In this document: positions 535 through 16,749 of the stretch, one piece after another | Layout of the letters: each line of letters opens with the position of its first letter | How positions within the stretch are numbered: the first letter of the stretch is position 1 | Virus record (IMG/VR): IMGVR_UViG_3300032431_000022 | DNA: 39,788 bases | Source of the DNA: a virus | Strand: one strand, 5' to 3' | The notes under the pieces: model-generated | What the model saw: the letters and a program-made list of their open reading frames with translations, nothing else | Told to the model about the DNA's origin: nothing | Databases searched by the model: none | Position numbers and translations under genes: made by a program

Positions 535-554
535 CACGAGGGGGATCCTAGCAC

Positions 555-2675
555 ATGGCCGAACTAGTAGTCACACTCACAGGCGACGAGGCAAATCTCG
601 CACGCTCTATCCAGAAGATGGTTACCGAGCAAGCCAAGCTCCAGGCAGGCTTTGACAAGTCCGGCTCGTCAGCGAAAAACGCAGCCGACGAACACGTCAA
701 GGCACACCAAAAAAACCAAGCCGAAATCGCAAAGGTAAACAAGCTCCACGAGGCAACAGTCCAGGCACTCGACCGCGAAGTCGTCGCAATGACCAAGGGC
801 AAGGCCGCAGCCGCAGAGCTTCGCGCAATCCAATCCGGTATGACTCGCGAGCAGGCAGCCGTCATCCGTCTCAGGCACGAAGAAATAGCCACAATCAATG
901 CGACGAAAGATGCCGCGAGAACATCCGCTGACGAGCAGTCTACGCACAACAGCTCTCTGACATCTGGTCTCGCTGGTCTAGCCGCGTCATATCTATCGCT
1001 CAACACCGTCGCATCAGCCTACACGCAAAACCTACGCGATCAAAAAGACCTTGCAAAAGAGGCTTTGGACATAGCAGAGAAACTTGCCAAAGTTCAGTCG
1101 ACAACATCGAAAAACCTAACCGGGCTGTCGTCAAAAGAAAAAGCGATCGCGATCTCAGAATCCGGAGCACTGTCGAAAGAACTCGGCATCGATCGTGCTG
1201 AAGTCGAGAAAGCCGTGGGGGCCGGTTTTAGCGCAGTCGGCAACATCGACGCAACCAAGAATGCAGTGAGAGCGGCTGCTCAGATCACGTCACTAAGCCC
1301 CGAACAACTCTCGACCGTAACGACGGGAGCCCTGGACGTTCGCAAAGCCACGGGCATCGACAATGCCGAGCAGAATCTTTCGTTTCTATTGCAGTCAGGC
1401 AAGCAAGCTCGAATCGAAGATCCAGCCAAACTATCGGCGACGCTCGCGAAAGCCCTTGCAAGCGGTGTCAATACAGTCCAAGGCCAGGACAAACAGGAAG
1501 CCTCTCGCGAACTCGCCGCAACATTCAGTGAGTTTACACAGGCCACTACCGACAAGACCGGTGATAGCACAGCGACCGCTGTCATTACCCTGTCGGCCAA
1601 GCTAAACGAATTCTTTCGCGACTTACCAAAAAGCATCGGGAAGCTCGACGAGCAGATCGCACCGCTAGTCGAAAAGCAAAAAGTCACTGAAATAGAAAAG
1701 GCCCAACTAGCACTTGCCGAATTCGACGTCGTTGAAAAGAAAAAAGACGCCGACCGCGCTGGGACCGGAACGGATGCAAGATCCATACGCGACAGACTGG
1801 AATACGATCAATCGGTTGCACGCCGCGACAAAATGAAAGAAGACGTCGGGCTGTCTGCCGACGAAGAGAAGAAACTCCAGGGGCTCCAGTCGCAGCGAGA
1901 CGGACTCGCCAGCGTCACTGACACGGGAACCTTCTTTGGTCGGCGAGACGCATTACAGAATAACGTCGGTGCTCAGGAAGCATTTTTGGCGAACCCAGTT
2001 GGCGAGGTTGCGTACCAAGGGGCGATCCGCGATTTCGTCCAGGGTGGCGCAGGATCCAAGCGAATCGATGCAAACAAAGGTGAACTTGGATTTGACGCTG
2101 GCGTTTTTAAAACGACGGCTGCCGAAGACGAAACGCTCTCTCCCGAGTTGCGCGTCGCTCGGGCAAGTGCGAGGGCCAAAGCAATCAGCGAGGCAAATAA
2201 AGTCGAAGGCGACAAACCCACGATCGGACTGATTGACGAGATCAAAAAGGATACGCTGCGTCAGAATCGTGGGGGCGTTATCATGGGCGCTGGCCAAGCC
2301 TACATAGAAGAAAAGAATGATAAATATCTACAGGCGGGCAATGACACAGCCGCTGCCGCCAACATCGCTGTTGGGCAACTAGAGAATCGACGCATGGAAT
2401 TGAATCGCTACGAAGGCGGAACCGTGGCAGGTGGTAATAAGATCGCGAAGATCGACGAAGCAATTCAAATGATCCTACAGATCGCATTCGATCAACGAAT
2501 AGGAATAACCACTGCCGGGGTGCGAGGCCGTAACGAGCAAGCAGAACTTCAACGAGAGACAAACGAACTGCTCCGGCAACAACTCAAAAACCGTGCAGCA
2601 GGCAATACCCCACCGGTCTCCGCGAACGCGATCCGAGCCCAGGCCGCTATGCCTCCAGTCGTGGGAGCCAACTAA
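555..2675 (+). CDS. Tail tape measure protein (706 aa)
   Basis: Long Ala/Lys/Glu/Gln-rich coiled-coil-like ORF in the tail module, following the tail tube and chaperone candidates. SD-like gaggggga lies upstream. Confidence 0.75.
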   Translation: MAELVVTLTGDEANLARSIQKMVTEQAKLQAGFDKSGSSAKNAADEHVKAHQKNQAEIAKVNKLHEATVQALDREVVAMTKGKAAAAELRAIQSGMTREQAAVIRLRHEEIATINATKDAARTSADEQSTHNSSLTSGLAGLAASYLSLNTVASAYTQNLRDQKDLAKEALDIAEKLAKVQSTTSKNLTGLSSKEKAIAISESGALSKELGIDRAEVEKAVGAGFSAVGNIDATKNAVRAAAQITSLSPEQLSTVTTGALDVRKATGIDNAEQNLSFLLQSGKQARIEDPAKLSATLAKALASGVNTVQGQDKQEASRELAATFSEFTQATTDKTGDSTATAVITLSAKLNEFFRDLPKSIGKLDEQIAPLVEKQKVTEIEKAQLALAEFDVVEKKKDADRAGTGTDARSIRDRLEYDQSVARRDKMKEDVGLSADEEKKLQGLQSQRDGLASVTDTGTFFGRRDALQNNVGAQEAFLANPVGEVAYQGAIRDFVQGGAGSKRIDANKGELGFDAGVFKTTAAEDETLSPELRVARASARAKAISEANKVEGDKPTIGLIDEIKKDTLRQNRGGVIMGAGQAYIEEKNDKYLQAGNDTAAAANIAVGQLENRRMELNRYEGGTVAGGNKIAKIDEAIQMILQIAFDQRIGITTAGVRGRNEQAELQRETNELLRQQLKNRAAGNTPPVSANAIRAQAAMPPVVGAN

Positions 2676-2677
2676 CC

Positions 2678-3097
2678 ATGCCCGCACCTGTCAACTCAAT
2701 CGGCAGTTTTGAATTCGTTCGATTTTTATCGAACACGCCGCTAACCCGTCCGACATATCAATTCTCTATCGAGACCAAGCCCGGTCGTGATGGGTTCGCC
2801 GCAATCTATGCAGGCCGATGGGGCACGCCAATCACAGTCGAAACCGAATCGGTATTCCCAACGTTTGTACTTGCTCAAACGTTCAAACAAAACTACCAAA
2901 ACGGCCCTCAATTGGATGTCGTCAACGTAGTCCAGGACGATGTTTCCTACCTCGCTCAGGGCGTGCAATTTATGGTTCAAAACGCCGAAGTCCAATCAAT
3001 CCAAGCCATCCCGTTTTACATGACCGCAGATGCTTATTTCATGCCTGCTTTTGTTGTCGTTACCGCATGGACATTGATACCGAGGTTAGTAACTTAA
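2678..3097 (+). CDS. Hypothetical tail protein (139 aa), distal-tail position
   Basis: Tightly coupled to the tape measure stop. Call is by position only. Confidence 0.4.
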   Translation: MPAPVNSIGSFEFVRFLSNTPLTRPTYQFSIETKPGRDGFAAIYAGRWGTPITVETESVFPTFVLAQTFKQNYQNGPQLDVVNVVQDDVSYLAQGVQFMVQNAEVQSIQAIPFYMTADAYFMPAFVVVTAWTLIPRLVT

Positions 3098-3100
3098 TCC

Positions 3101-5374
3101 ATGCCAACCAACATTATCACATTCGGTAGCGCGGTCGCATTTTCGGGTACATATCGGATCTACCGAAAGGCTCGCTGGGCTGATTCCTGGACACTCGACG
3201 AGCGGCTCCTCGTCACGGGCCTATCGATCGCCGCAGCTCCCACCATCCCGACCGCCTCGTTCACCTATCGATATGGCCAGGCTCGCGAATTCAATTCCGC
3301 GACGATGGTCACGCGATCGCGACTAAGCATCGAAGGCCACTTCATAGCGATCGAAGTCGATTGCCCCGAGGCCAGTACGTTCCATAGCTGGGTGGGCTAT
3401 GTCGATGCTGTATCGGAGAGCGAGCGCGGAGCAACACTGGTCGGCGCTAACATGATCGCAACCGGCCTGCAAACTTTTTCATGCGTTGGAATCGTCAACG
3501 CTTTAGCCTTCGAACAAATCGACAGGACGTTTTTTAACAACAACACAACCGGCACACAAAAGGCCGAGATGGCTCTTTCGCCACCGATCTTCAATCGGCT
3601 GATCAAAGATAAACTAACCGACGGAGATGACCGCCCCGAGCAATCGCGAGCAGACTCCAAGATCACCGAACCACCAGCGTCAACGACTGCGTTATCGTTC
3701 CTCCATATCTTCGATCGATTCTACGGACGCAACTCCAACGGCACAGTAACCTACAATAGCTGGTCCACCAAAGACATCGCCGAGCATCTCCTAGACCGCT
3801 ACCAACCACTGGATGCAACCGGAGCCAAAGCGATCAAATTTCGTTGGCGAGCGGGCTCGCTAGATCGTCTACCCACCGCCGACCAACCAATGCTCGATTG
3901 CACCGGAAAGACTCTCCTGCAATCACTCGACGAACTGATCACCGGAGCGAAGCTAATCGGCTACTATGCCGAGCACGTCATAGACGCAGCTGTTCCATGG
4001 ATCGAGCTGGTAACATTCACCTACGCATCAACCGCCGTCGACGTAGGCGATTACACAATCCCAGCCAACGACGACATCGTTGATCTGATCATGTTTGCCG
4101 ACCCAGCCACCGGCTACACAACGCAGTTCAACTTGTCGCAAAAGTACGACCAAGTAATTGCACGCGGAGCCCGCCGCAGAGTCGTCGCAACGCTCAACAT
4201 GAAAGACACCGCAGGCACCCCAGAGCCGAGTGTGATTCGATCATGGCCGACGTCATTACAAACAACTGACCGTCAAGCCAAGCTTGACGCGATTGCCGCA
4301 GAATCGGATGCAGTATCATCGCAATCCGAAAAGACCGAAAAGTATCTTGCGATATACGACTCGCCGCAGTTCTTCCCTGTCGGCTCAAACTTTATTTTGC
4401 GAGTCAATGGATGGACTGGCAACCGCCATTTTCAAATTGCATCGCACAGATTGTTTGAACAACAAAAGGACGCCGAAGGTAACGATCAAGACTACTACCC
4501 ATCTCCGCAATACTTGCGTGTCCTCAACGACCTGCCATTACTGGAGGGGATCAATTACAAAAACGGATTTTCACAATCGGCACTCGGATTACGGCCACGT
4601 CGATACCTGGAAAATCAAGTCTTTTCGCCTGAGTTTACGCAGTCCGGTGCTACGTTCACTGCGCATGCAACGAAAAAAGTTTACTGGGGTGATCGCCATA
4701 AACGAACGTACTTTTGGAAGCCCAGCGAGCCACCGTTTTCGATTAAGGGTGATCCCCTCGACAACGCGTGCGGTGTCGCGTTAAAAATCGAAGGAGCATC
4801 ACAGTACCAATTGCTGTTTGGTGACTTGTCGGTACCATCCAGCCCGTTCGTCCCGCACCTGCCACACATCGCCACGGCGCAATTGCAAGTGACATGCTGC
4901 CTCGAGGAAGATCGCCAAATCGAATCACGCTGGCCAACCGAAAGCACTATCTCCGCAGCCGCTGCTCTGGATGCCGTTCGCCGTCTGATCATCGACGCCC
5001 CGAACTGTCAAAAGAATCGCATCCTCGAGGGCACGCTCCTGTGGACCGATCAAGAAGTGTTCTCGGTCGCATCCACGCAAACGATCCGCGATGACACGGC
5101 AAAGCTCACTTCGCTCGCTAAACGAGCCTCCGCATGGTTCACAGTCCCGCGTCGAGTTCTGCGAGTCAAAACCGCTCGCACAACCTCACTCGTGGGTCTC
5201 GGTAAACTAGTTCGCAACATCGAAAACAGCACCGTCCAATCGCTCGAAATCAACACGGTAATCACGCAATTATCGCTAACCTTTGATTCCACACGCGGAC
5301 CATCCATGGAGATCGAAACCCAGTCCGGTCAAATCGATGCGCTCGCGTTTGTCCCCGCTGGTTGGGAGACCTAG
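3101..5374 (+). CDS. Large tail/baseplate-associated structural protein (757 aa)
   Basis: Long ORF directly after the distal tail candidate. No motif recognised. Confidence 0.45.
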   Translation: MPTNIITFGSAVAFSGTYRIYRKARWADSWTLDERLLVTGLSIAAAPTIPTASFTYRYGQAREFNSATMVTRSRLSIEGHFIAIEVDCPEASTFHSWVGYVDAVSESERGATLVGANMIATGLQTFSCVGIVNALAFEQIDRTFFNNNTTGTQKAEMALSPPIFNRLIKDKLTDGDDRPEQSRADSKITEPPASTTALSFLHIFDRFYGRNSNGTVTYNSWSTKDIAEHLLDRYQPLDATGAKAIKFRWRAGSLDRLPTADQPMLDCTGKTLLQSLDELITGAKLIGYYAEHVIDAAVPWIELVTFTYASTAVDVGDYTIPANDDIVDLIMFADPATGYTTQFNLSQKYDQVIARGARRRVVATLNMKDTAGTPEPSVIRSWPTSLQTTDRQAKLDAIAAESDAVSSQSEKTEKYLAIYDSPQFFPVGSNFILRVNGWTGNRHFQIASHRLFEQQKDAEGNDQDYYPSPQYLRVLNDLPLLEGINYKNGFSQSALGLRPRRYLENQVFSPEFTQSGATFTAHATKKVYWGDRHKRTYFWKPSEPPFSIKGDPLDNACGVALKIEGASQYQLLFGDLSVPSSPFVPHLPHIATAQLQVTCCLEEDRQIESRWPTESTISAAAALDAVRRLIIDAPNCQKNRILEGTLLWTDQEVFSVASTQTIRDDTAKLTSLAKRASAWFTVPRRVLRVKTARTTSLVGLGKLVRNIENSTVQSLEINTVITQLSLTFDSTRGPSMEIETQSGQIDALAFVPAGWET

Positions 5375-5385
5375 TAGTCGACCTA

Positions 5386-5463
5386 ATGAGCCGCAACGCG
5401 ATAGCGTGCGGTTTTTACGAACATAAAAGAAAGGAAACCGCACGCTATCGCGTTGCGGCTCAT
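5386..5463. repeat. Perfect inverted repeat: 29-bp arms (5386-5414 and 5435-5463) with a 20-nt loop
   Basis: atgagccgcaacgcgatagcgtgcggttt and its exact reverse complement, read directly. Intergenic between the 757-aa gene and ATG 5470. Confidence 0.95.
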
Positions 5464-5469
5464 AAAACC

Positions 5470-5925
5470 ATGAATGCCGCACGCGTAGTACGTCTAACCG
5501 GAGCCCGCACCGATACATCTACCGGTCCAGTCATGTGGTCGATCGAGATACCCGACGGAGATCCAATCGAATCCGACGAAATCTATTGCAACGCAGGTTT
5601 TTATTGGATCCTAGTCAACGTCAAAGTCAACTCTATTTCGACCATGACCAACGAACGCAAATTCGAATTTGACTTAGAAACGCTAACTCCTCGAGGCGTC
5701 ACTCTATCGACCCGAGAGCATACGCACCCAGTCCCAGGATTTAGCGCATCGTCGGCAGGTCCGCGATTGGTCTACCAATCACCGTTTCAGTTTTGGTCCT
5801 ACGGCACGATTATTCAGGGCACAAAACTAAAGCTAATCGTCGAGCATCCTTGCAACGTTGAATTGATCGCTGTCCGCCATGCAAACATTGCCAACGAGTC
5901 CATGATGGAATTGGAGCTGCGATAG
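5470..5925 (+). CDS. Hypothetical structural protein (151 aa)
   Basis: The ORF-track start at 5362 would translate the hairpin. The in-frame ATG at 5470 just after the hairpin is preferred. Confidence 0.5.
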   Translation: MNAARVVRLTGARTDTSTGPVMWSIEIPDGDPIESDEIYCNAGFYWILVNVKVNSISTMTNERKFEFDLETLTPRGVTLSTREHTHPVPGFSASSAGPRLVYQSPFQFWSYGTIIQGTKLKLIVEHPCNVELIAVRHANIANESMMELELR

Positions 5926-5928
5926 ATC

Positions 5929-6525
5929 ATGGAAATATGGGCCACGATGCGATCGACGCTGTTTAGTAGTGCGGATTATCCTGATGCCACAACCGGGGCT
6001 TTTGTACCGATACACCAAAACGAGTTTCGCAGATGTGTATTTCGCTCAAGCGGATTACACCTAGTGATTGCGTCGTTTGTTGCTGACGGAGCATTTTTGT
6101 ACCACCAATCGTACACCGTTGGGGTGGAGTCGTTTTATCGAGAACCGATTCATACTAACTTTATCAACGCAGTGTTAGTCGATGCGAATCGTGCTGATGT
6201 TCTTCGCGATGGACAGCCTTACGGAGTATTCCCGCCGTCAATCGAAATCAAATGCGACGCCCATACTCACACCTACGATAGCGGATCGAAAACGGTCACC
6301 GGATTACTTGGACGCGACGAAGTTTCTGCGGGTGGGATGTTTATGGATCGCGCGGGTCGATCGCGTCGGCAACGAGCAACGCAGCAATTATTTTTCATAG
6401 TCGACGCCACGCCCGGCGATACGCTATTTATTTGGTGCGACTACCCACCCGAAACGGCAATCACTTACGAGATGTTTCGCCTCTGCCCCGCATTCCAAAA
6501 CTGGAAGGCAATCGAAATCGGATGA
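5929..6525 (+). CDS. Hypothetical structural protein (198 aa)
   Basis: Tightly packed in the tail operon. ATGA overlap with the next gene. Confidence 0.5.
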   Translation: MEIWATMRSTLFSSADYPDATTGAFVPIHQNEFRRCVFRSSGLHLVIASFVADGAFLYHQSYTVGVESFYREPIHTNFINAVLVDANRADVLRDGQPYGVFPPSIEIKCDAHTHTYDSGSKTVTGLLGRDEVSAGGMFMDRAGRSRRQRATQQLFFIVDATPGDTLFIWCDYPPETAITYEMFRLCPAFQNWKAIEIG

Positions 6526-7583
6526 ACAATATCCAGCCATTCAATTACGTTGGCCATTGGACTGGAACCGGCACCACATCAGGAGCCGCCGTATCGATCA
6601 CAACCGCGCCCTACACACGTTCGACCGTCGACAGCAGCAGCGGCACCACCAGTCGATTCCAGTGGCGACCATCGACCCAAACCGCCGCACCCGACAAACG
6701 CGTTCTGCGCCCCCGAAACCGCATGTCAGTCGCGTATTTAATCACGGTCAGGCCAACAACAGCCACCTGGCAAACACGACTAACGCGAATGGAGATCGCA
6801 ACCAACCCATTCGTAAGACCCGATCATGTGCATTGTGTACCTGGCCTTCCTACCAGTTTTTCTACGGTCGCTTCAGCGTCTGGCACGACATACACCGCAC
6901 ACTACCCTGGTGCGATTGTCGTGCCAAATCCAATACTAGAGTTGTCGTCCGGCAACCCTCGAGTTGTCAGCGATCGAATTGTCGGAAACTCCAGCGGCGA
7001 GGTCCGGACTAACGGTATCAGTGGGGATGTGCAAATATTCGACAGCGAGCGAATATTTGCTACGGGCATTTTTAGCCAGGGTTTTGCACCCTATACGCGG
7101 ATACTTTCGGCGTATCAACTTGTCCACGGACTGACTTCCCCAATCACAACAAACATCTGGCCGCAGGATACATTTACTTCCTGGGGTATGGCTCACATCG
7201 GAGCCAATACCGATTGGTGCCCACCGATCATCGTCGAGGCCAGTGATACAGTAGATTTCGAGGCGTCGATGTCACTCTGGATAATCGATCGACCCGTCTC
7301 GCCATTTACGCAAACCAATCTACGAGCGATTTCCGAGAGCGGTCAGCGATCGCTCACCAATCTAGCCGTCTCGCCACCCACGCCAGCCGCCCCGCCGTTT
7401 GCATTCTCGCGGCACCGCATACTCCCCGCTGGTCAATACTGGCGAACCCTTACCTACCCCGCAACCTACGCCTCCCCGACCGCTCGCTGGTCCGCCGTCC
7501 CAGGATCCTCCAGCACCGGATTCACGCCACCAATCACAGAGCCAAGTTGCCCATTCGTAATCACGCCAGGCGTCCCAGACTAA
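6522..7583 (+). CDS. Hypothetical tail protein (353 aa), Ser/Thr/Pro-rich
   Basis: In-frame ATG 6522 overlaps the preceding stop (ATGA). Last gene of the plus-strand operon. Its stop overlaps the intI stop convergently by 4 nt. Confidence 0.5.
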   Translation: MNNIQPFNYVGHWTGTGTTSGAAVSITTAPYTRSTVDSSSGTTSRFQWRPSTQTAAPDKRVLRPRNRMSVAYLITVRPTTATWQTRLTRMEIATNPFVRPDHVHCVPGLPTSFSTVASASGTTYTAHYPGAIVVPNPILELSSGNPRVVSDRIVGNSSGEVRTNGISGDVQIFDSERIFATGIFSQGFAPYTRILSAYQLVHGLTSPITTNIWPQDTFTSWGMAHIGANTDWCPPIIVEASDTVDFEASMSLWIIDRPVSPFTQTNLRAISESGQRSLTNLAVSPPTPAAPPFAFSRHRILPAGQYWRTLTYPATYASPTARWSAVPGSSSTGFTPPITEPSCPFVITPGVPD

Positions 7584-8590
7584 GCCCGCTTCCGTCGATG
7601 GATCTGCATAGTCGAAGGGTTCGCCATTAGCGTCTCCAGCGGGCTCAAAGCCGCCGTCGCCTGATGTTCGTCCGAGTGTACGTAAATTTCAGTTGTCCTT
7701 ATATCCGCGTGACCCAAAAGTTGCATCAACGTTCGCATCGGTACGCCTTGCTCGTGCGAGTGCGTCGCGTATGAATGCCGTAGCACATGCGATGTTACCC
7801 GCTTCATAATCCCCGCTCGCTCAGATGCCTCCTTGATCATCCTTGCAATATGATCAGGATGGCGATGATGACGACACAAAACTCGCTCGTGCCCAACGCT
7901 AAGGCAGTCGCTTGGAAACAGGAAATACCACATCAGCGACGATGCCGCACGAGGCGATTTCCGCCGATACGCATCGGGCAGCGAAACGCCGTTTGGATTC
8001 TGCGTTTGATCGCATCGGCAAACCACTTCGACCGATTGGATTTGACGCCGAACCGCTTGATGCACAATCTCCGGAAAGACCGTAAACCGCCACTTTTCGC
8101 CCTTGGTTGTTTTGATCGCCAATTGTTTCCGATCGAAGCTAATATCCTTCAGCCTCAACCCAACAGCATCACCAATCCGAAGCCCGCACCCGTACATCAA
8201 TTGAGCGACCAACAGATTCACCCCGTCAAGCTGCGTGAACAACCTACCGACCTCACCGACACTCAGCACCTCACGAGTGTGAGCCTCCCGCTTGGCCCGC
8301 ATCGCGCTAACATTCTCGATCGAGATCCCCAGTATCTCCCGATAGAGATACAGCACCGCTTGCAAAGCAGTATTCTGAGTACTTTTCGACACACCCTTAT
8401 CCGTCGACAACCAAGACAACCACCGCTCAATTTCCACCCGCCCACAATCCTTCGGATGCCGCCACTCACTAGCATTGTACGACCGCACATGCTGCATATA
8501 GTCGACACAATACCCCCAATAAGTCCGAAAAGTATTAGGCGATAAGCCCTGCAACTTAATCTTCCGCTCCATCTGTTCCTCAAGTTTCAT
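7580..8590 (-). CDS. intI: Integron integrase (IntI-type tyrosine recombinase, 336 aa)
   Basis: GVSLPDAYRRKSPRAASSLMWYFLFP...CRHH matches the IntI-specific insertion (IntI1: [26 protein letters not shown]...RRHH). Catalytic set present: GLRIGD, KGEKWR, HVLRHSYAT, LLGHADIRTTEIYVH. SPLE tail is like IntI1 SPLD. Start chosen at MKLEEQ, with GAGGAG upstream. Confidence 0.85.
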   Translation of the reverse strand: MKLEEQMERKIKLQGLSPNTFRTYWGYCVDYMQHVRSYNASEWRHPKDCGRVEIERWLSWLSTDKGVSKSTQNTALQAVLYLYREILGISIENVSAMRAKREAHTREVLSVGEVGRLFTQLDGVNLLVAQLMYGCGLRIGDAVGLRLKDISFDRKQLAIKTTKGEKWRFTVFPEIVHQAVRRQIQSVEVVCRCDQTQNPNGVSLPDAYRRKSPRAASSLMWYFLFPSDCLSVGHERVLCRHHRHPDHIARMIKEASERAGIMKRVTSHVLRHSYATHSHEQGVPMRTLMQLLGHADIRTTEIYVHSDEHQATAALSPLETLMANPSTMQIHRRKRA

Positions 8591-8652
8591 TATCCTGCGC
8601 TCCTCATGTATTATCCGTGTTAAAAATCGACTAATAAGTTGTTCGCAGGGCC
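8591..8652. other. intI-proximal site: attI candidate or short degenerate attC-like hairpin
   Basis: gttcgcagggcc (8641-8652) is the exact complement of 9008-9019. cctgcg (8594-8599) pairs with cgcagg (8644-8649). The arm ttagtcgat resembles the consensus arm ttgaccgat. Overlaps the intI SD. Confidence 0.45.
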
Positions 8653-8999
8653 TACTTGCGGCCTTTTGGTTTTTTAATTGCACTCGGTGACGAATCAAGC
8701 TCGTCTTGGATTCTTGCTTGCCTACGCGATGCCAACTCGCCATACGCATAAGCTGCGATGCCTTCCATATTTTCCGCTGCTCCGTAATGATTGGTCAACG
8801 TCGCCTCGGCTTCCATGCCGTCCTCGCGAATGGCACTAAATCGCATCACGAAGAGTAGATCCCGAATCTTGTACTTGTTCCGTAGTTCATACAATTCATC
8901 ACAAAATTTCACTACTCGCTCATTCGCAACCTCGAATGATTCGTGAGGTATGCTGACTTCGCGGTATTGCTGCATGTCGTTTTTAATTACTGATGTCAT
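8652..8999 (-). CDS. Cassette ORF A, hypothetical (115 aa)
   Basis: Start moved to the in-frame ATG at 8999, because the upstream part of the track ORF lies in the attC-like hairpin. Flanked by a complementary 12-mer pair. Confidence 0.6.
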   Translation of the reverse strand: MTSVIKNDMQQYREVSIPHESFEVANERVVKFCDELYELRNKYKIRDLLFVMRFSAIREDGMEAEATLTNHYGAAENMEGIAAYAYGELASRRQARIQDELDSSPSAIKKPKGRK

Positions 9000-9007
9000 T
9001 TGATTAC

Positions 9008-9104
9008 GGCCCTGCGAACAAAGCGTTGGACCGAAGCACCGGCCAAACATTGATTTGAATTTGAATCGTCAACCGGTGCATCGGTCAACTATTTCGTTAT
9101 CGGG
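9008..9104. repeat. attC-like imperfect hairpin a1 (97 bp)
   Basis: Stem gaccgaAgcaccgg / ccggtgcAtcggtc with a conserved A.A mismatch. Outer boxes end in AAC (9017-9019) and GTT (9096-9098). Confidence 0.8.
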
Positions 9105-9312
9105 ATGACCAACGCTCAACAATGATCGCAACTGTAGCGACGATCCCAAGCGCAATTAAGACCCCTGCAACCAAAGCTAATCCACCCCAGAAAGGGAGAG
9201 TGACCAACCACCATGGCCAATCAATGACTCCGCAAAGCTTTAGCGTGACAAAAACAACTCCAAGTAAACCAGTAACACCTATGCCGCCTGACGAGATTCT
9301 TTTATCTGACAT
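9097..9312 (-). CDS. Cassette ORF B, small membrane protein (71 aa, about 2 TM)
   Basis: Hydrophobic segments GLLGVVFVTLKLCGV and GGLALVAGVLIALGIVATVAIIV. The TAA stop lies inside the ATAAC box. Leader is ttatcgggtgatttATG. Confidence 0.65.
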   Translation of the reverse strand: MSDKRISSGGIGVTGLLGVVFVTLKLCGVIDWPWWLVTLPFWGGLALVAGVLIALGIVATVAIIVERWSSR

Positions 9313-9318
9313 AAATCA

Positions 9319-9412
9319 CCCGATAACAAAGCGTTCGACCGAAGCACCGGCCAAACATTGATTTGATTGTTAAACGTCAACCGGTGCATCGGTCAACTAT
9401 TTCGTTAGGATG
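9319..9412. repeat. attC-like imperfect hairpin a2 (94 bp)
   Basis: Near-identical to a1, a3 and a6. Left box cccgataac, right box gttaggatg. Confidence 0.8.
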
Positions 9413-9524
9413 ACGGAAAATCCAACCTAACAAACATGATGACAAACCATACAGCCACGCTGAACAGTAAGCCACAGCCAAAACCTAGCCAAAAAATCAA
9501 TCCGTTTTCGCCTTGCTTGTCCAT
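9405..9524 (-). CDS. Cassette ORF C2, 39-aa hydrophobic peptide
   Basis: MDKQGENGLIFWLGFGCGLLFSVAVWFVIMFVRLDFPSS, with one TM segment. The stop lies inside the TAAC box of a2. A short ORF, so uncertain. Confidence 0.4.
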   Translation of the reverse strand: MDKQGENGLIFWLGFGCGLLFSVAVWFVIMFVRLDFPSS

Positions 9525-9568
9525 TGTTTTTTGCTGACTAGATGACTGTTTTTTGCTGACTAGATGAC
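9525..9568. repeat. Exact 22-bp tandem duplication (9525-9546, 9547-9568)
   Basis: tgttttttgctgactagatgac occurs twice, read directly. It spans the stop of ORF C1 and the leader of ORF C2. Confidence 0.9.
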
Positions 9569-9934
9569 AACTTCTTCGGTCTTTATTTGCGGGCGAGGCT
9601 GCAAATCCAACGTTGACCACTCAAATTTTATTTGCAACGCCTCGTCGACGAAACTGTACTCTTCAATTCGCCCATCAAGAGGCGTCGTTTTCTTGACCTT
9701 TTGTCCGCCAAAGAGCCGGTTGATGATTGCGTGCTTTTCCGAATCCTTGAAACACAACCAAAGCGAGACGCGAACGCCTGGAGCACTGCGAGGATGTAGG
9801 GTTATTCGAAAGTCCCCTAGATCGTTGCGATGTTCGTATGCCCATTCCGTGGCTCGTAGCATTCCCTCACGCGCAAGAATCCACCCATGATCAATGCTGT
9901 TTTGTACTTCCGTTTCTTCCGCGATTGCACTCAT
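9560..9934 (-). CDS. Cassette ORF C1, hypothetical (124 aa)
   Basis: Start moved to the in-frame ATG at 9934, outside hairpin a3. Confidence 0.6.
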   Translation of the reverse strand: MSAIAEETEVQNSIDHGWILAREGMLRATEWAYEHRNDLGDFRITLHPRSAPGVRVSLWLCFKDSEKHAIINRLFGGQKVKKTTPLDGRIEEYSFVDEALQIKFEWSTLDLQPRPQIKTEEVVI

Positions 9935-9941
9935 AATTCCG

Positions 9942-10035
9942 CATCCTAACAAAGCGTTGGACCGAAGCACCGGCCAAACATTGATTTGAAGCTGAATCGT
10001 CAACCGGTGCATCGGTCAACTATTTCGTTATCGGG
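9942..10035. repeat. attC-like imperfect hairpin a3 (94 bp)
   Basis: Same core as a1. Left box catcctaac, right box gttatcggg. Confidence 0.8.
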
Positions 10036-10264
10036 ACAGATTATTTTCGACCTGTTCCCGCCAATTTTTATTTCTAGCGTCCAGTTCATCGGCAATTACC
10101 CGAAGGTCTTTTGCAGACAATGCGCCACGATCCTTGATCCAGAAATATTGGAACCCGTCATCTAGTGGCCCAATCTCTTTGTGCTTATTCAGACTCGAAA
10201 TCACTTTGCGTCGGTGAATCGCATCGTCAGTATTCTGTCCCCATTCGCGGTTTGAATCACTCAT
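10028..10264 (-). CDS. Cassette ORF D, hypothetical (78 aa)
   Basis: Stop lies inside the ATAAC box of a3. ATG is 14 nt from the GTT box of a4. Confidence 0.6.
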   Translation of the reverse strand: MSDSNREWGQNTDDAIHRRKVISSLNKHKEIGPLDDGFQYFWIKDRGALSAKDLRVIADELDARNKNWREQVENNLSR

Positions 10265-10270
10265 TTACTG

Positions 10271-10365
10271 CCCTATAACAAAGCGTTGGACCGAAGCCGT
10301 CCGCAGCCTTTAAATTGATTGATATTCTTTTGTTGACGGCATCGGTCAACTATTTCGTTATGCGG
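10271..10365. repeat. attC-like imperfect hairpin a4 (95 bp), divergent sequence with the same fold
   Basis: Stem gaccgaAgccgtc / gacggcAtcggtc. The distal stem changes compensatorily relative to a1, and the A.A mismatch is retained. Confidence 0.8.
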
Positions 10366-10385
10366 ACGGTTTCCCGCAAATCTCT

Positions 10386-10649
10386 TTATTCGATTTGCGT
10401 ATTTTTCTTAGCCTCAATGACATGGCTAACAAACGCCCATTCTTTCCAATCTTTCTGTACATCTCGGCATCCACGATTGGCTGCTTCGGCCATCGCCATT
10501 ACGTCGACGGTACAAAGGCATTGGTCTTTTGACGGTTCAAACGCACATCCCGCAAGCAATGCAATCGGCACGCTTAACTCGTCAGATAGTCCACCTGCTG
10601 TTTCTATTTCTTTTCGGTCATCGCCGTCGATAACAACAACATCGCACAT
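10386..10649 (-). CDS. Cassette ORF E, hypothetical acidic Cys-containing protein (87 aa)
   Basis: ORF bounded by a4 and a5, flanked by the unit-specific pair gttatgcgg / ccgcataac. Confidence 0.6.
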   Translation of the reverse strand: MCDVVVIDGDDRKEIETAGGLSDELSVPIALLAGCAFEPSKDQCLCTVDVMAMAEAANRGCRDVQKDWKEWAFVSHVIEAKKNTQIE

Positions 10650-10657
10650 AATCGCCG

Positions 10658-10751
10658 CCGCATAACAAAGTCATGCATCGAAGTCCCCGTCGACGCTTGT
10701 TTTGATGGTAAATCACCGAGCGGGGACTCGATGATGACATTCGTTATCGGG
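10658..10751. repeat. attC-like imperfect hairpin a5 (94 bp), most divergent sequence with the same fold
   Basis: tcat[g]catcga[a]gtccccg pairs with cggggactcgatgatga. Two single-base bulges sit on the plus-strand 5' arm. Confidence 0.75.
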
Positions 10752-10965
10752 ATGAAACGTCCGCGTCGATTGAATTGACGTGAACTTTCAAAATCATCGC
10801 CTCATACCATGGTATATCGATTCCTCTTGTTTCTTTGATCCACCGAGACTTCGCCCGCCCATCCAGGTACGCCAGCGGAGACACCAGCAATCCAACGAAA
10901 ACCACTATCACTATCGTCATGCCAAAGACAGAACAGAGAAACTTAAATACTTCAGACCAATTCAT
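10744..10965 (-). CDS. Cassette ORF F, small membrane protein (73 aa)
   Basis: TM segment FGMTIVIVVFVGLLVSPLAYL. Stop lies inside the ATAAC box. Same leader as ORF B (ttatcgggtgatttATG). Confidence 0.65.
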   Translation of the reverse strand: MNWSEVFKFLCSVFGMTIVIVVFVGLLVSPLAYLDGRAKSRWIKETRGIDIPWYEAMILKVHVNSIDADVSSR

Positions 10966-10971
10966 AAATCA

Positions 10972-11065
10972 CCCGATAACAAAGCGTTGGACCGAAGCAC
11001 CGGCCAAACATTGATTTGAAGTTGAACCGTCAACCGGTGCATCGGTCAACTATTTCGTTATCCCG
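10972..11065. repeat. attC-like imperfect hairpin a6 (94 bp)
   Basis: Same core as a1-a3. Left box cccgataac, right box gttatcccg. Confidence 0.8.
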
Positions 11066-11066
11066 A

Positions 11067-11744
11067 TCAAAACAGCACGCCTTGCGACAGTCGCTTGGCC
11101 GCTATCTCGCAATACTCTTCGCTGATCTCAATCAGCGTTGCCTTACGGCCTTCGGCTTTCGCCGCAACGCCGGTTGTTCCACTCCCCGAAAACGGGTCGA
11201 GGATTGTTTTGACTTCTTCGCCAGCATGCCCTATGCACCACTTCATCAAGCCTAAAGGCTTTTCTGTTGGGTGGCTTTTTCCGTTCGTGTGTGCTTCTAC
11301 CCTGCTCATCCTGAACGTCTTGCACGGCTTATCTAAAGTCGTCCAAGCCGCTTCAAAATCACTGCCACTAAACTCCTGAATCTTGTCCCATGTCAACCAG
11401 CACCTGGACGGCTTTACGCTAAAATAGTTTCCACCCCAAACGATGTGCTTGCCTGCCGCCTCTAAAATCGCATCCATTAACCATTGGCTTGGTGTTGCGT
11501 TATCCCATTGGAAACTATCAAACTCCTTTCGCTTCGCGCCTGCTTGCATTTGCATCTTGCCAACTCCAATCCCATACGGTGGATCGGTCAACAGAAGATC
11601 GAACTTCCCCAGGAAGGGTAAAACCTGCCGACAATCTGCGTTGTAAATCGTCACCGCTTCATCCTGATAGTACGGACGAAAGGGTACTGACGGGATAACA
11701 ATTGCATGAACCGGAGCAACCGGCGGTATTTCATTTTGAATCAT
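11067..11744 (-). CDS. DNA methyltransferase, beta-class N6A/N4C (225 aa)
   Basis: LLLTDPPYG precedes DPFSGSGTTGVAA, the motif order typical of beta-class N6_N4 methyltransferases. Start placed at MIQNEI, preceded by GAGGA. Confidence 0.85.
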   Translation of the reverse strand: MIQNEIPPVAPVHAIVIPSVPFRPYYQDEAVTIYNADCRQVLPFLGKFDLLLTDPPYGIGVGKMQMQAGAKRKEFDSFQWDNATPSQWLMDAILEAAGKHIVWGGNYFSVKPSRCWLTWDKIQEFSGSDFEAAWTTLDKPCKTFRMSRVEAHTNGKSHPTEKPLGLMKWCIGHAGEEVKTILDPFSGSGTTGVAAKAEGRKATLIEISEEYCEIAAKRLSQGVLF

Positions 11745-11772
11745 AATTTTTCCTCGGTTGACCCGGTTATGC
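11691..11772. repeat. Degenerate attC-like site overlapping the methyltransferase 5' end
   Basis: cgggataac (11691-11699) is the exact complement of the a6 right box. The following arm aacaattgcatgaaccggagcaaccgg resembles the consensus arm. gttatgc lies at 11766-11772. Confidence 0.4.
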
Positions 11773-11782
11773 AAAGCGTTCA

Positions 11783-12205
11783 TCAGACCGGTTTAACGTA
11801 TTCGAACTCGATCCGCGTTACCTCTGTTTCAGGACTACATTTCATGTGTCCAGCAAACATTTCAACAAACTCCTTGCCTGTCATGCCGGGAAAACCCTCC
11901 ATCTCGCATTCTCCACGACCGTAGCCAGAGCTTTGGAGCATAGTGTCAAGCGACTCAAACGTAACATCCACAACCCGGATTTGTCCCAGTCGCTGAATCT
12001 GTTCGCCGGGCCTAAGTCCCATGCACTTAACGCACGCGTTTAGAATCTGTCCCGGTTTAAGATTCTTCCATCCAACGCGACGAGTGACGGTTTTGGTCCG
12101 TTTCCGAATTTGGTCTGTCGTTAGGGCAAACGATATATTTCTCGGCACGATGAACAATCCAATGCAACCGAGTTGCGGGTAAAGGTTTTTGAAGTGGAAA
12201 ATCAA
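11783..12205 (-). CDS. ASCH-domain protein (140 aa)
   Basis: ISFALTTDQIRKRTKTVTRRVGW is an ASCH-like N-terminal motif. Confidence 0.55.
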   Translation of the reverse strand: MIFHFKNLYPQLGCIGLFIVPRNISFALTTDQIRKRTKTVTRRVGWKNLKPGQILNACVKCMGLRPGEQIQRLGQIRVVDVTFESLDTMLQSSGYGRGECEMEGFPGMTGKEFVEMFAGHMKCSPETEVTRIEFEYVKPV

Positions 12206-12241
12206 CTGGCCGCAACCGGTTGATTGGAAGCGTTCGTCGTA

Positions 12242-12580
12242 TTACGCAAACTGTTTAGCCGCGTAAATACGTTCGTAATTTGACCGCCTGCGATTCTGAA
12301 AATCCACGACTGATTGCACGCCCTCGAAATCGCACTCGTGAAGCTCATCCATCAGCGCGCCATGACAGTGGCAATGTAAATCGATTTCTTTAATCATGTC
12401 CAGACACGTTTGGCAAGTCCGATAGTCGCTAAAATCACCTTCCCAAAGTCCCTTGGCGTATTCGTGTTGCTCGCCTTTTTCGATAACACGCAAGCACTCA
12501 CTGCATTGATGATCCTTGCGGCCTTTAACGACCTTAGATTCGTAAAATTCTGGTGGGTTGTCCCAGTAGCAATCGCACAT
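12242..12580 (-). CDS. Cys/His-rich hypothetical protein (112 aa)
   Basis: Several CxxC and HCHCH motifs. AGGAG lies upstream of the ATG. Confidence 0.6.
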   Translation of the reverse strand: MCDCYWDNPPEFYESKVVKGRKDHQCSECLRVIEKGEQHEYAKGLWEGDFSDYRTCQTCLDMIKEIDLHCHCHGALMDELHECDFEGVQSVVDFQNRRRSNYERIYAAKQFA

Positions 12581-12665
12581 AACAAACTCCTAAAAGCGAT
12601 GGACCGAAGCCATTGATTAACGTTAATTGCTTAAAACATCTTCTAGCGACGGCATGAGTCATCGC
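12578..12665. repeat. Degenerate attC-like hairpin a7
   Basis: cataacaaa..aaagcgatggaccgaagcc resembles the consensus left arm. The stem 12596-12611 / 12651-12665 keeps the A.A irregularity. No clear right-hand GTT box. Confidence 0.4.
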
Positions 12666-12694
12666 AATCGTCTCCTGATTCATAAACCACGGGC

Positions 12695-15813: not shown

Positions 15814-16197
15814 CTAGCTCTCCTTAATCTCTATGCCATGTTGTGCGAGCATTAGCCGCTTCTTTTGCTTGTACACCGCTGTCCGGTAGCCCTTGGAATC
15901 CTCGACCACTTCGAGACCTGTTTTAAGATCGACGTACACAAAATCAGCTATGTACTTTGCGTTGATCACAACCGGGAAAGCGACCTGTCGTCGAAGCCCC
16001 GAAATCTTTCCCGCCCGTATTAATAGTTGCAATTCTTTGTATCGCCGAGCCTCTTTTTTCGAAGCAAACCGAATCCCATCTACCTCTGTAGGTTTTGCGT
16101 GGTACTTATGCTCGCGGGATCCTGACCGCTTCGGTCTGGTCCCCTTTGGCTTTCGATCGCTGAGTAGCTTTGCAAGGATTGTTTTTTGGCGTGTCAT
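15814..16197 (-). CDS. DUF1064-family nuclease-like protein (127 aa)
   Basis: KYHAKPTEVDGIRFASKKEARRYKELQLL...ADFVY...VEDSKG matches the DUF1064 pattern. ATGA overlap with the upstream gene. Confidence 0.75.
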   Translation of the reverse strand: MTRQKTILAKLLSDRKPKGTRPKRSGSREHKYHAKPTEVDGIRFASKKEARRYKELQLLIRAGKISGLRRQVAFPVVINAKYIADFVYVDLKTGLEVVEDSKGYRTAVYKQKKRLMLAQHGIEIKES

Positions 16198-16655
16198 AGA
16201 GCACCTGCCTTTCGCTTGGCAACCCAGCACGGCTTTAGCTCTTTTTTGAGTTCGATCGTTTCCAACCGATCGCGACCGTCGCTCACCGTTATCGTTCGAA
16301 ATTTTGGCGGCATACCGTTGTTTGTTCGTTCAATTCTCTTATCAAAAAAATCAGCAGCAAGCACCGCAGCCCGCAGAGGCGTCAACGCCTCGCCATAGAT
16401 CACTTTGAGCATCTCGCGTCGATTCTCCGGCCAGCAATGCCACTCGTTACGCACCGCACTGTTGAGCCCCGCATCAACGCGTTGACGTTGCAGATCCTGG
16501 TAGACTTCCTCACGATGGATCGCAACCCGCATAGGAGCCTCGACACCCACCTTGACCCGTCCGTCCAGGACATCGCAGACCATCACTTGTATATCATCAC
16601 CGATCCGAATTACCTCACCCCGAGAGCGTCCTAGCACTAACATCACAAAGTCCAT
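16194..16655 (-). CDS. csrA: CsrA-domain protein with an approximately 100-aa C-terminal extension
   Basis: MLVLGRSRGEVIRIGDDIQVMVCDVLDGRVKVGVEAPMRVAIHREEVY is a near-canonical CsrA fold sequence. Start is at 16655 or 16643. Confidence 0.8.
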   Translation of the reverse strand: MDFVMLVLGRSRGEVIRIGDDIQVMVCDVLDGRVKVGVEAPMRVAIHREEVYQDLQRQRVDAGLNSAVRNEWHCWPENRREMLKVIYGEALTPLRAAVLAADFFDKRIERTNNGMPPKFRTITVSDGRDRLETIELKKELKPCWVAKRKAGAL

Positions 16656-16749
16656 TCTGTTAAAAAAACTATCCAAAACACACGGCGACCGAACCCAGTC
16701 GCTAACCTGCCAAAACCACTTGAGCAAGCCATCGAACGACGCGTGTTAG

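Follow-up and report, generated by a model that had tools for sequence, protein, structure and literature searches.

Can a phage genome carry an integron of its own, and how would such an element be built? The question is raised by IMG/VR virus record IMGVR_UViG_3300032431_000022, a stretch of viral DNA of 39,788 nucleotides (hereafter the window), in which a first-pass annotation had described a tyrosine recombinase gene and an adjoining series of imperfect palindromes as a complete integron, that is, an integron integrase (IntI) together with an array of attC recombination sites and gene cassettes. The match to an integron integrase profile, the structure of the attC sites, the presence of an attI site and the turnover of cassettes among related loci all uphold that description. 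We conclude that the region from 7580 to ~12680 is very probably a complete, functional-looking integron resident in a temperate phage, with cassettes built as an attC site followed by an open reading frame (ORF) that reads toward attI and intI.

The recombinase belongs to the integron integrase family

The intI ORF, read from the ATG at 8590, encodes 336 aa, and three public gene callers give the same model (P0001). The protein passes the NCBIfam 'integron integrase' model TIGR02249 with 282.1 bits against a cutoff of 265, whereas it fails the Xer models TIGR02225 (108.5 vs 329.6 bits) and TIGR02224 (94.7 vs 335.15 bits). Its best match in the PDB is VchIntIA, the Vibrio cholerae integron integrase (2a3v; E 4.9e-48, residues 39-320). 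The alignment with 2a3v is unbroken through the IntI-specific insertion, where the segment GVSLPDAYRRKSPRAASSLMWYFLFP...CRHH aligns column by column with that of VchIntIA and W219, H240 and H241 are conserved. With Xer proteins of the PDB the match is confined to the catalytic C-terminus, which argues against membership in XerC or XerD. Residues R138, K163, H268, R271, H294 and Y303 are invariant across 22 homologs, and generic Phage_integrase and SAM-like domains are also present. The first-pass annotation had seen in this recombinase the extra segment that distinguishes IntI, and had proposed weighing it on an IntI-specific profile against Xer; the 2a3v alignment and the profile scores bear out both points. 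On these profiles and alignments the recombinase is a member of the IntI family with the IntI-specific domain, as expected of an integron.

The array contains eight intact attC sites and one relic

Six imperfect palindromes of 94-97 bp lie upstream of intI, at 9008-9104, 9319-9412, 9942-10035, 10271-10365, 10658-10751 and 10972-11065, and each starts with ..AAC and ends with GTT.. on both strands. Four of them are 83-100% identical; the other two, 10271-10365 and 10658-10751, are diverged and retain their ends and stem through compensatory changes. Hairpin z-scores against shuffled sequences range from -4.7 to -5.7 for five sites and are weak (-2.6/-2.8) for 10271-10365. In an alignment of seven sites 85% of the cells are paired and 9 pairs have changed on both sides, a score reached by 0 of 500 shuffles. 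By the structural criteria of Nivina 2016, who gives a size range of 57-141 bp, these 94-97-bp sites have the features of attC: R''/R' boxes, L boxes, an unpaired central spacer (UCS), extrahelical bases and a variable loop.

A covariance model, R1, was built from seven of the window's sites. It recovers, with 40.5 bits (E 5.6e-7), the site at 11691-11786, on which it had not been trained. A separate search for hairpins turned up the site at 12147-12240 (z -4.6, -5.4; flagged at 12149-12238), and a degenerate ninth site at 12589-12678 scores 26.2 bits with R1 (E 0.002). This relic keeps the 3' arm GGCTTCGGTCCATCGCTTT and is without clean AAC/GTT ends or matching R boxes. The array accordingly comprises eight intact attC sites and one relic and reaches ~12.7 kb. 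The six palindromes first annotated thus fold as described and are real attC-like sites; it is the size of the array that was understated, and an attI can be defined besides. Because the further sites at 11691-11786 and 12147-12240 extend the array, a DNA methyltransferase (MTase) gene and an ASCH-like gene are also counted as cassettes. At gathering thresholds Rfam gave no match in the window; Rfam appears to be without an attC family. The element is composed as follows.

7580-8590, minus strand: intI, integron integrase, 336 aa, with TIGR02249 match, VchIntIA match and invariant catalytic residues
8588-8646, minus strand: attI, with a conserved core, the divergence point of two related loci (L006/L007) and an inverted repeat
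8642-9096, minus strand: cassette 1 (attI-proximal), attC 9011-9104 (105.6 bits, R1) and ORF F 8652-8999, 115 aa
9097-9404, minus strand: cassette 2, attC 9319-9412 (102.1 bits) and ORF E 9097-9312, 71 aa, small and hydrophobic
9405-10027, minus strand: cassette 3, attC 9942-10035 (105.4 bits) and ORFs D1 9560-9934, 124 aa, and D2 9405-9524, 39 aa, hydrophobic
10028-10357, minus strand: cassette 4, attC 10271-10365 (85.5 bits, divergent loop) and ORF C 10028-10264, 78 aa
10358-10743, minus strand: cassette 5, attC 10658-10751 (82.2 bits, divergent sequence, same structure) and ORF B 10386-10649, 87 aa
10744-11057, minus strand: cassette 6, attC 10972-11065 (107.5 bits) and ORF A 10744-10965, 73 aa, with a hydrophobic N-terminus
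11058-11778, minus strand: cassette 7, attC 11691-11786 (40.5 bits) and DNA methyltransferase 11067-11744
11779-12232, minus strand: cassette 8, attC 12147-12240 and an ASCH-domain ORF from 11783 to ~12147
12233-12678, minus strand: probable decayed ninth cassette at the distal end, relic attC 12589-12678 and a Cys-rich ORF 12242-12580

The integron forms the 3' end of a phage early operon

The window begins and ends with the same 127 bases, a terminal overlap that indicates a circular contig, and the window encodes the phage hallmarks TerL, portal, a protease-capsid fusion, a tail protein and a phage-type integrase. Upstream of the array, the same strand encodes a replisome organiser, a RusA-like resolvase, a CsrA-like regulator and an acetyltransferase. 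The leftward early operon runs from ~18.3 kb to 7.58 kb (~10.7 kb), with the integron as its 3' end and intI as its last gene; downstream of intI there are only tail genes, which are convergent with it. No host housekeeping genes flank the integron, its neighbours being replication and recombination genes on one side and tail genes on the other. Two independent assemblies of the same phage, L001 (ENA) and L002 (Logan), match the window from 554 to 9046 at 100% identity, which confirms the junction of tail genes, intI, attI and cassette 1; both stop at or beside the first attC. A megablast search of window positions 1-25000 against the INPHARED phages gave no match. The placement originally proposed, in a phage genome and at the 3' end of the early operon, is therefore sustained by the terminal overlap, the hallmark genes, the early genes upstream and the terminal position of intI. 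Of the Int/Xis pair that this genome had been credited with, the integrase was found, while a Pfam search of the switch region found neither a Xis nor a repressor.

Two further features of this genome were recorded. The CsrA-like regulator domain of the early operon (phrog_9500, E 3e-17) is encoded by a 177-aa ORF at 16194-16727. Within the tail module, between the ORFs at 3101-5374 and 5362-5925, there is a near-perfect palindrome of ~70-78 nt at 5386-5463, which folds at about -48 kcal/mol on either strand, far more strongly than any attC hairpin, and which appears as a self-inverted match in L001 and L002 as well.

Related integrases occupy the same position in other phages

IntI has ~700 homologs at E<=1e-20, the closest 62-71% identical and many of them labelled 'integron integrase' by JGI. 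In IMG/VR, exact peptide words of IntI and an attC 22-mer gave no match, and an alignment-based search succeeded. Genomic context was examined for 13 of these homologs, at 41-71% identity. All seven clade integrases sampled pass TIGR02249 (267-313 bits). All 11 loci with upstream sequence have R1 matches upstream of intI, on the intI strand. A covariance model made from the repeats thus detects like sites beside intI homologs in 11 other phage loci. The layout of the window, with reversed coding at the end of an early operon, recurs in 11 of the 13 homologs, in phages whose structural modules differ; for L009 and L010, the remaining two, there is no upstream sequence. The order early genes, array, intI was seen independently in L003, L004, L034, L035 and L036. 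R1 found no attC in Virus Rctr41k, in L022, L024 or L027 (Verrucomicrobia, Gemmatimonadales), or in L009 and L010.

Phage hallmark genes lie beside intI in eight of the 13 loci.

L003: portal, capsid
L004: prophage in a 226-kb contig, with terminases, portal, protease
L008: capsid-protease, tape measure
L009 and L011: terminase, portal
L033: D5-type primase, small terminase
L035: Mu-type portal, terminase
L036: RecT/YqaJ, RuvC, terminases

Weaker phage markers only (an HNH gene, a P22-family protein and a weak second integrase) are present in L034. For L005, L006, L007 and L010 the viral assignment comes from IMG/VR, and the large ORFs tested of L005 and L006 are without a PHROG match. Among 50,697 deposited phage genome records, nine contain IntI relatives, all at <=38% identity, and six of the nine are records of Qi et al. 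2023. Judged from the 13 contexts sampled, the IntI clade appears to be phage-resident. One MAG (metagenome-assembled genome) contig, assigned to Pirellulaceae, carries a 66%-identical IntI, from which our guess is that the host belongs to the Planctomycetota.

Three further observations concern individual loci. In L003, the HTH_36 (replisome-organiser-like) gene upstream of the array contains two tandem 43-nt repeats (6966-7051, 93% identical), which may be origin iterons. The distant IntI of L021 (a Chthoniobacteraceae MAG; 35% identity) has an R1-type attC match (671-767) upstream and on the intI strand, and its intI-upstream region differs, with CTGTCGTGTAGC...GCTACACGAC palindromes. Finally, Virus Rctr41k (L038; KX853513.1, from an anammox/DAMO (denitrifying anaerobic methane oxidation) enrichment) encodes at 4680-5678 a 'xerD, integrase-like protein' that scores 383 bits against the TIGR02249 cutoff of 265 and so outscores the window IntI. 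It is co-oriented with its neighbours, has two methyltransferase-like genes downstream and is not in the list of Qi et al. 2023; since R1 finds no attC there, any sites would be of another type.

A conserved attI lies directly upstream of intI

The window attI lies 53 nt upstream of intI. Its minus-strand core is GCG AAC AACTTATT, with the AAC at 8643-8641, and two direct-repeat-like motifs are present within the site, CACGGATAATA at 8619-8609 and GCGCAGGATAATG at 8600-8588, the latter overlapping the intI start codon. An AACAAyTTATT core followed by GCGCAGGwTAT-like repeats was found 50-92 nt upstream of the intI ATG in 12 of 12 loci. Cassette 1 is bounded by a perfect 14-nt inverted repeat (8639-8652 vs 9008-9021). 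The ORF nearest to intI is not followed by a hairpin (z = -0.4); the conserved motif is found there instead. An attC-like hairpin considered at 8545-8655, overlapping the intI start, was ruled out (z = -0.4 and -1.0). We infer that crossover occurs between 8642 and 8641 (within AAC AACTTATT; G/TT at 8641-8643 on the plus strand, the slash here and below marking the break). From its conservation and its position, the motif upstream of intI is best described as attI, the site of cassette insertion.

Cassettes are exchanged as discrete units

The loci L006 and L007 are 99.9% identical over 11,063 bp starting 91 nt upstream of intI, and their arrays are without detectable similarity. The break falls exactly at the attI AAC: ...CCGACG/AACAATTTATT in one locus versus ...CCCGAT/AACAATTTATT in the other. 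A second case is provided by L011 and L035, whose integrases are 51.5% identical and whose sole shared DNA is one 869-bp segment of 87% identity. This segment runs exactly from the AAC of the attC located 5' to the ORFs as far as ...GTCCGTGGAA/C, beyond which the two loci have unrelated attC sites.

If crossover takes place inside the R box, the flanks of the box should pair across a cassette, and such complementarity was observed. The 6 nt after the GTT of a site match the reverse complement of those before the AAC of the next site at a mean of 5.45/6 positions, with 29 of 33 pairs at >=5/6, whereas the comparison of a flank with its own site gives a mean of 2.43/6, which is the random level, and only 2 of 47 sites pair within themselves. 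The outer R-box bases of the attC sites likewise do not pair within their own site.

Mobility is apparent for individual cassettes and sites as well. The MTase cassette occupies position 7, 5 or 1 from attI in different arrays, and attC sites 96-99% identical to those of the window occur in other metagenomes between unrelated flanks. A site 95.6% identical to 10271-10365 lies in contig L030 and one 98.8% identical to 10972-11065 in L032, again with unrelated flanks; the other two of the four metagenome 19-mer matches, L029 and L031, were chance matches inside genes and were discarded. The comparison of related genomes that had been suggested as a check therefore reveals cassette replacement (L006/L007, L011/L035) and an order that is not fixed. 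From these junctions we conclude that the cassettes are discrete mobile units bounded at G/TT and AA/C.

The cassette genes read toward attI

An attC site can be oriented by two landmarks, an extrahelical base at position 16, most often G, and a conserved T at 23/24; a 6-bp stem separates the two (Nivina 2016). Canonical integrons have the intI-sense strand as their bottom strand and carry their genes on the top strand; according to Nivina et al. 2016, cassettes facing the promoter had never been observed.

We parsed 41 sites from 13 loci on the ORF-sense strand. Of these, 40 have a one-base bulge on the 3' arm at position 16/17 (38 times C, twice G) and 36 a T near position 23; 35 have both, usually with the 6-bp stem between. 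The bulges occupy the arm across from the 5'-AAC of the intI-sense strand, which is the canonical bottom-strand geometry. Arms-only folding placed the extra bases on the 3' arm of the intI-sense strand at 39 of 47 sites and on the 5' arm at 2 of 47. As a control, the Vibrio-type integron of phage Va_90-11-286_p16 shows the same polarity relative to intI (7 of 9 sites versus 0), with its genes on the opposite strand; arms-only folding was adopted for these long sites, just 4 of 9 of which were parsed by full-length folding.

In 42 of 45 cassette intervals it is the intI strand that carries the longest ORF, and the MTase, phrog_1374 and phrog_19515 matches confirm coding on that strand. The ORF adjacent to attI abuts it by its 3' end, with no attC between. 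Bulge geometry, the attI junction and the boundaries of the shared cassette are three independent tests, and they establish that the physical cassette is an attC followed by an ORF. At the level of sequence, these data show that the cassette genes lie on the strand predicted to be recombined, the bottom strand, and read toward attI and intI. The usual orientation of cassettes, away from attI under a Pc promoter, is not what is found here, and the element differs from standard integrons because its cassettes read toward attI. The recombination machinery thus is, on this geometry, canonical in arrangement and its cargo reversed.

Two side observations concern the sites and the strands. K160 of the window IntI aligns with W157 of VchIntIA, a residue that may contact the extrahelical G, and the clade has a lysine there; the replacement of W157 by Lys and that of G16 by C16 may represent protein-site co-variation. 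In the attI-proximal intervals of L005 (1035-2030) and L006 (1270-1964) the longest ORF (205 and 156 aa) lies opposite to intI, in contrast to 42 of the remaining 43 intervals, and these two may be cassettes with their own promoter, for example toxin-antitoxin-like units.

Alternative explanations

A fragment of a host chromosomal integron could have been picked up by the phage, for instance by imprecise excision, and be carried as passenger DNA. Host pick-up is the origin of Va_90-11-286_p16, one of the three complete phage integrons reported in 2023, and a 66%-identical IntI lies on the Pirellulaceae MAG contig. We nonetheless consider this origin improbable for the window: Va_90-11-286_p16 keeps host ribosomal-protein and tRNA-ligase genes beside its intI, whereas here the integron lies inside a circular phage genome with no flanking host genes, its genes are in the reversed orientation, and this placement and coding recur in 11 of 13 homologs with differing structural modules. 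The cargo moreover matches phage protein families, and no IntI of a deposited phage (50,697 records) or known integron is more than 38% identical, so that the element does not fit the class of captured bacterial integrons. The repeats of the array, and the fact that two independent assemblies break at or near the first attC, bring to mind a chimeric metagenome assembly in which repeats joined a bacterial integron to a phage. L001 and L002, however, reproduce 554-9046 at 100%, the contig closes on itself through the 127-bp overlap, and the order of early genes, array and intI is found independently in L003, L004, L034, L035 and L036, which makes an artefact of this kind very unlikely.

The polarity of the array might also be conventional, each ORF being followed by its attC, if attI lay at the far, promoter-proximal end and intI were merely downstream of the last cassette. 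ORFs are indeed closely followed by a hairpin, with TAA stops inside the ..TAAC box as in ordinary cassettes, and on the plus strand the position-16 bulge is a G, the usual base. Yet the ORF nearest to intI has no hairpin after it (z = -0.4) and has the conserved motif at the very place where near-identical phages diverge, the cassette shared by L011 and L035 includes the 5' attC and excludes the 3' one, the bulges at 16 and 23 are opposite the 5'-AAC in the ORF-sense strand, and at the distal end of the array there is nothing but a degenerate site. With three independent tests speaking against it, this arrangement has very little probability. Least probable of all is that the locus is no integron, the recombinase being Xer-like or a phage integrase and the hairpins being terminators, REP (repetitive extragenic palindromic)-like repeats or RNA elements. 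It would account for the generic Phage_integrase and SAM-like domains, for the terminator-like scan that picks some of the hairpins and for the absence of an Rfam match; but the integron integrase model is passed while the Xer models give 95-108 bits where ~330 are needed, and R-box complementarity, AA/C breakpoints and extrahelical bases at these positions are foreign to terminators and REP elements.

Several points nevertheless weigh against a resident phage integron with reversed cassettes. Its recombination activity, strand choice and direction of transcription are deduced from sequence, the recombination products observed being natural ones, the L006/L007 and L011/L035 junctions. The junction between array and early genes is known in the window from a single assembly, as L001 and L002 cover only 554-9046, and the attC model R1 derives from the window's own repeats. 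The sites are not textbook attC: position 16 is C rather than the usual G and the UCS has one extra base on the 5' arm, and therefore strand selectivity could differ. A longer antisense ORF is present in 3 of the 45 cassette intervals. A promoter and terminator scan of the window returned fewer promoter-like sites than shuffled sequences did and was uninformative. Since 13 of ~700 contexts were examined, the phage-only clade is a sample, not a census, and the 66%-identical IntI of the Pirellulaceae MAG sits on a contig of just 1.7 kb.

Cassette genes and recurrent methyltransferases

The cargo of the window array consists mainly of small genes. ORF F of cassette 1 has no Pfam, PHROG or PADLOC match, and D1 and D2 of cassette 3 have no family match in Pfam or PHROG. 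ORF E of cassette 2 matches phrog_1374 (E 3.1e-20), and its TAA stop sits in the R box of the next site. The Cys-rich ORF of the decayed cassette matches phrog_19515 (3.7e-13), and the ASCH match of the cassette 8 ORF is weak (E 0.003). The attC sites of cassettes 5 and 8 both carry the extrahelical bases on the 3' arm, as a bulged C and T 6 bp apart in the former and, in the latter, with C bulged at position 16 and T at 23. The MTase of cassette 7 matches N6_N4_Mtase (9.3e-23), phrog_67 (1.1e-45) and PADLOC type II/orphan MTase models; besides it, PADLOC found no defence system in the cargo. Homologous DNA methyltransferase cassettes are present in L033 and L034, at array positions 1 and 5, and an MTase recurs as a cassette in L036 too. 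The cargo, made up of orphan MTases, small hydrophobic proteins and phage proteins of no assigned function, looks like a set of exchangeable phage accessory or anti-restriction genes.

Further details of the cassettes were noted. Most cassette ORFs stop at a TAA within the ..TAAC box of the next site, which results in a recurrent C-terminal ..SSR before the stop. The start codon and first 17 codons of the MTase lie inside the loop and 3' arm of attC 11691-11786, the mirror image of canonical cassettes, in which the 3' end of the ORF often enters attC. Between D1 and D2 there is a 22-nt tandem duplication (GTCATCTAGTCAGCAAAAAACA, two copies; 9530-9573, minus strand). MTases of N6_N4, Dam and C5 type occur as cassettes or just upstream of intI in five phage integron loci.

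L033, 165-845: MTase
L034, 7287-7940: MTase
L036, 8219-9938: MTase
L035, 3808-4722: MTase
Window, 11067-11744: MTase

Comparison with known integrons

The first-pass annotation had been aware of no described phage-encoded cassette platform, a view that is outdated. Among 10,705 phage genomes, three complete integrons were reported by Qi et al. 2023 (PMC9892861), along with one In0 and 17 CALINs (clusters of attC sites lacking integrases); they showed that attC sites from phages recombine with IntI1, and noted MTases in phage CALINs. The complete integrons are those of V. anguillarum Va_90-11-286_p16, E. coli P1 L-II and Shewanella M16-3, and the CALINs include TJE1, P12002L and PH101. The former comprise, in that order, a piece of a host Vibrio array, class 1 integrons carried by a phage-plasmid and, in a cryptic prophage, an integron of Shewanella type (Qi et al. 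2023); their gene orientation is canonical. The window shares with these elements the presence of integron parts in a phage genome, recurrent MTases and the potential for phage-mediated cassette transfer. Theirs are bacterial types, however, with IntI <=38% identical, whereas here the layout is conserved across many phages, the IntI clade appears phage-resident and cassette exchange between phages is visible.

With canonical integrons the element has in common the IntI insertion, an attI directly upstream of an intI that is transcribed away from it, and attC sites with AAC/GTT R boxes, L boxes, extrahelical bases 16 and 23 opposite the 5'-AAC and a crossover at AA/C; R-box flanks co-vary per cassette, and the intI-sense strand is the bottom strand. 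It departs from them in that its genes, coded on the bottom strand, are directed toward attI, where canonical cassettes read away from it under Pc, in the use of C16 instead of G16, and in being located in a phage early operon and not on a chromosome, plasmid or transposon. In the Treponema denticola type, intI is transcribed toward attI and the cassettes are downstream of intI (PMC3607928). There too intI and the cassette genes are co-directional, but in the window intI is transcribed away from attI and the cassettes are upstream, so that it is the cargo and not the integrase that is inverted. With attI upstream of the intI start, and with the intI-sense strand as the attC bottom strand as in the canonical control, the window does not belong to the Treponema type. 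The array also resembles phage moron or accessory hot spots, as a variable block of small genes at a fixed place that differs between otherwise identical phages. Here, however, the variation is ascribed to a dedicated site-specific recombinase, with hairpin sites and base-precise junctions, and not to illegitimate or homologous recombination. In the literature searched, which did not extend to subscription journals, no description was found of a phage-resident IntI clade, of bottom-strand-coded arrays or of phage integrons exchanging cassettes. Integrons on phages had been reported before; a phage-resident clade with reverse-coded cassettes was previously unrecognised in the searchable literature.

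Proposed model and implications

We propose that IntI would fold the bottom (minus) strand of attC and exchange it with attI at AA/C, so that a new cassette would enter between the array and intI and become the last accessory gene of the early operon. Transcription reading through from the phage early promoter, and not a Pc at attI, would express the cassettes, and intI would be transcribed along with them in early phage development, at a time when single strands could come from replicating phage DNA. The needs of the phage would be served by the cargo. We think it likely that the locus represents an integron lineage native to temperate phages, probably of Planctomycetota, with bottom-strand cassettes read from the early promoter, no Pc, a terminal intI and a cassette pool common to structurally unrelated phages.

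If this model is correct, integron logic can operate without Pc, even though integrons are viewed as bacterial devices for which the orientation of cassettes to that promoter is deemed essential. Surveys that assume co-orientation of gene and attC may mis-describe such arrays. With cassettes built as attC then ORF, adding an attC to the 3' end of a gene could not be the sole route by which cassettes arise, and with attC 5' of the gene these arrays would provide natural test material for the question of cassette birth. The phage reports of 2023 would be widened from sporadic captures to a resident lineage. Phages would possess a dedicated site-specific means by which early accessory or counter-defence genes are swapped, a programmable accessory-gene platform that, because orphan MTases recur among its cassettes, would bear on the arms race between phages and host defence.

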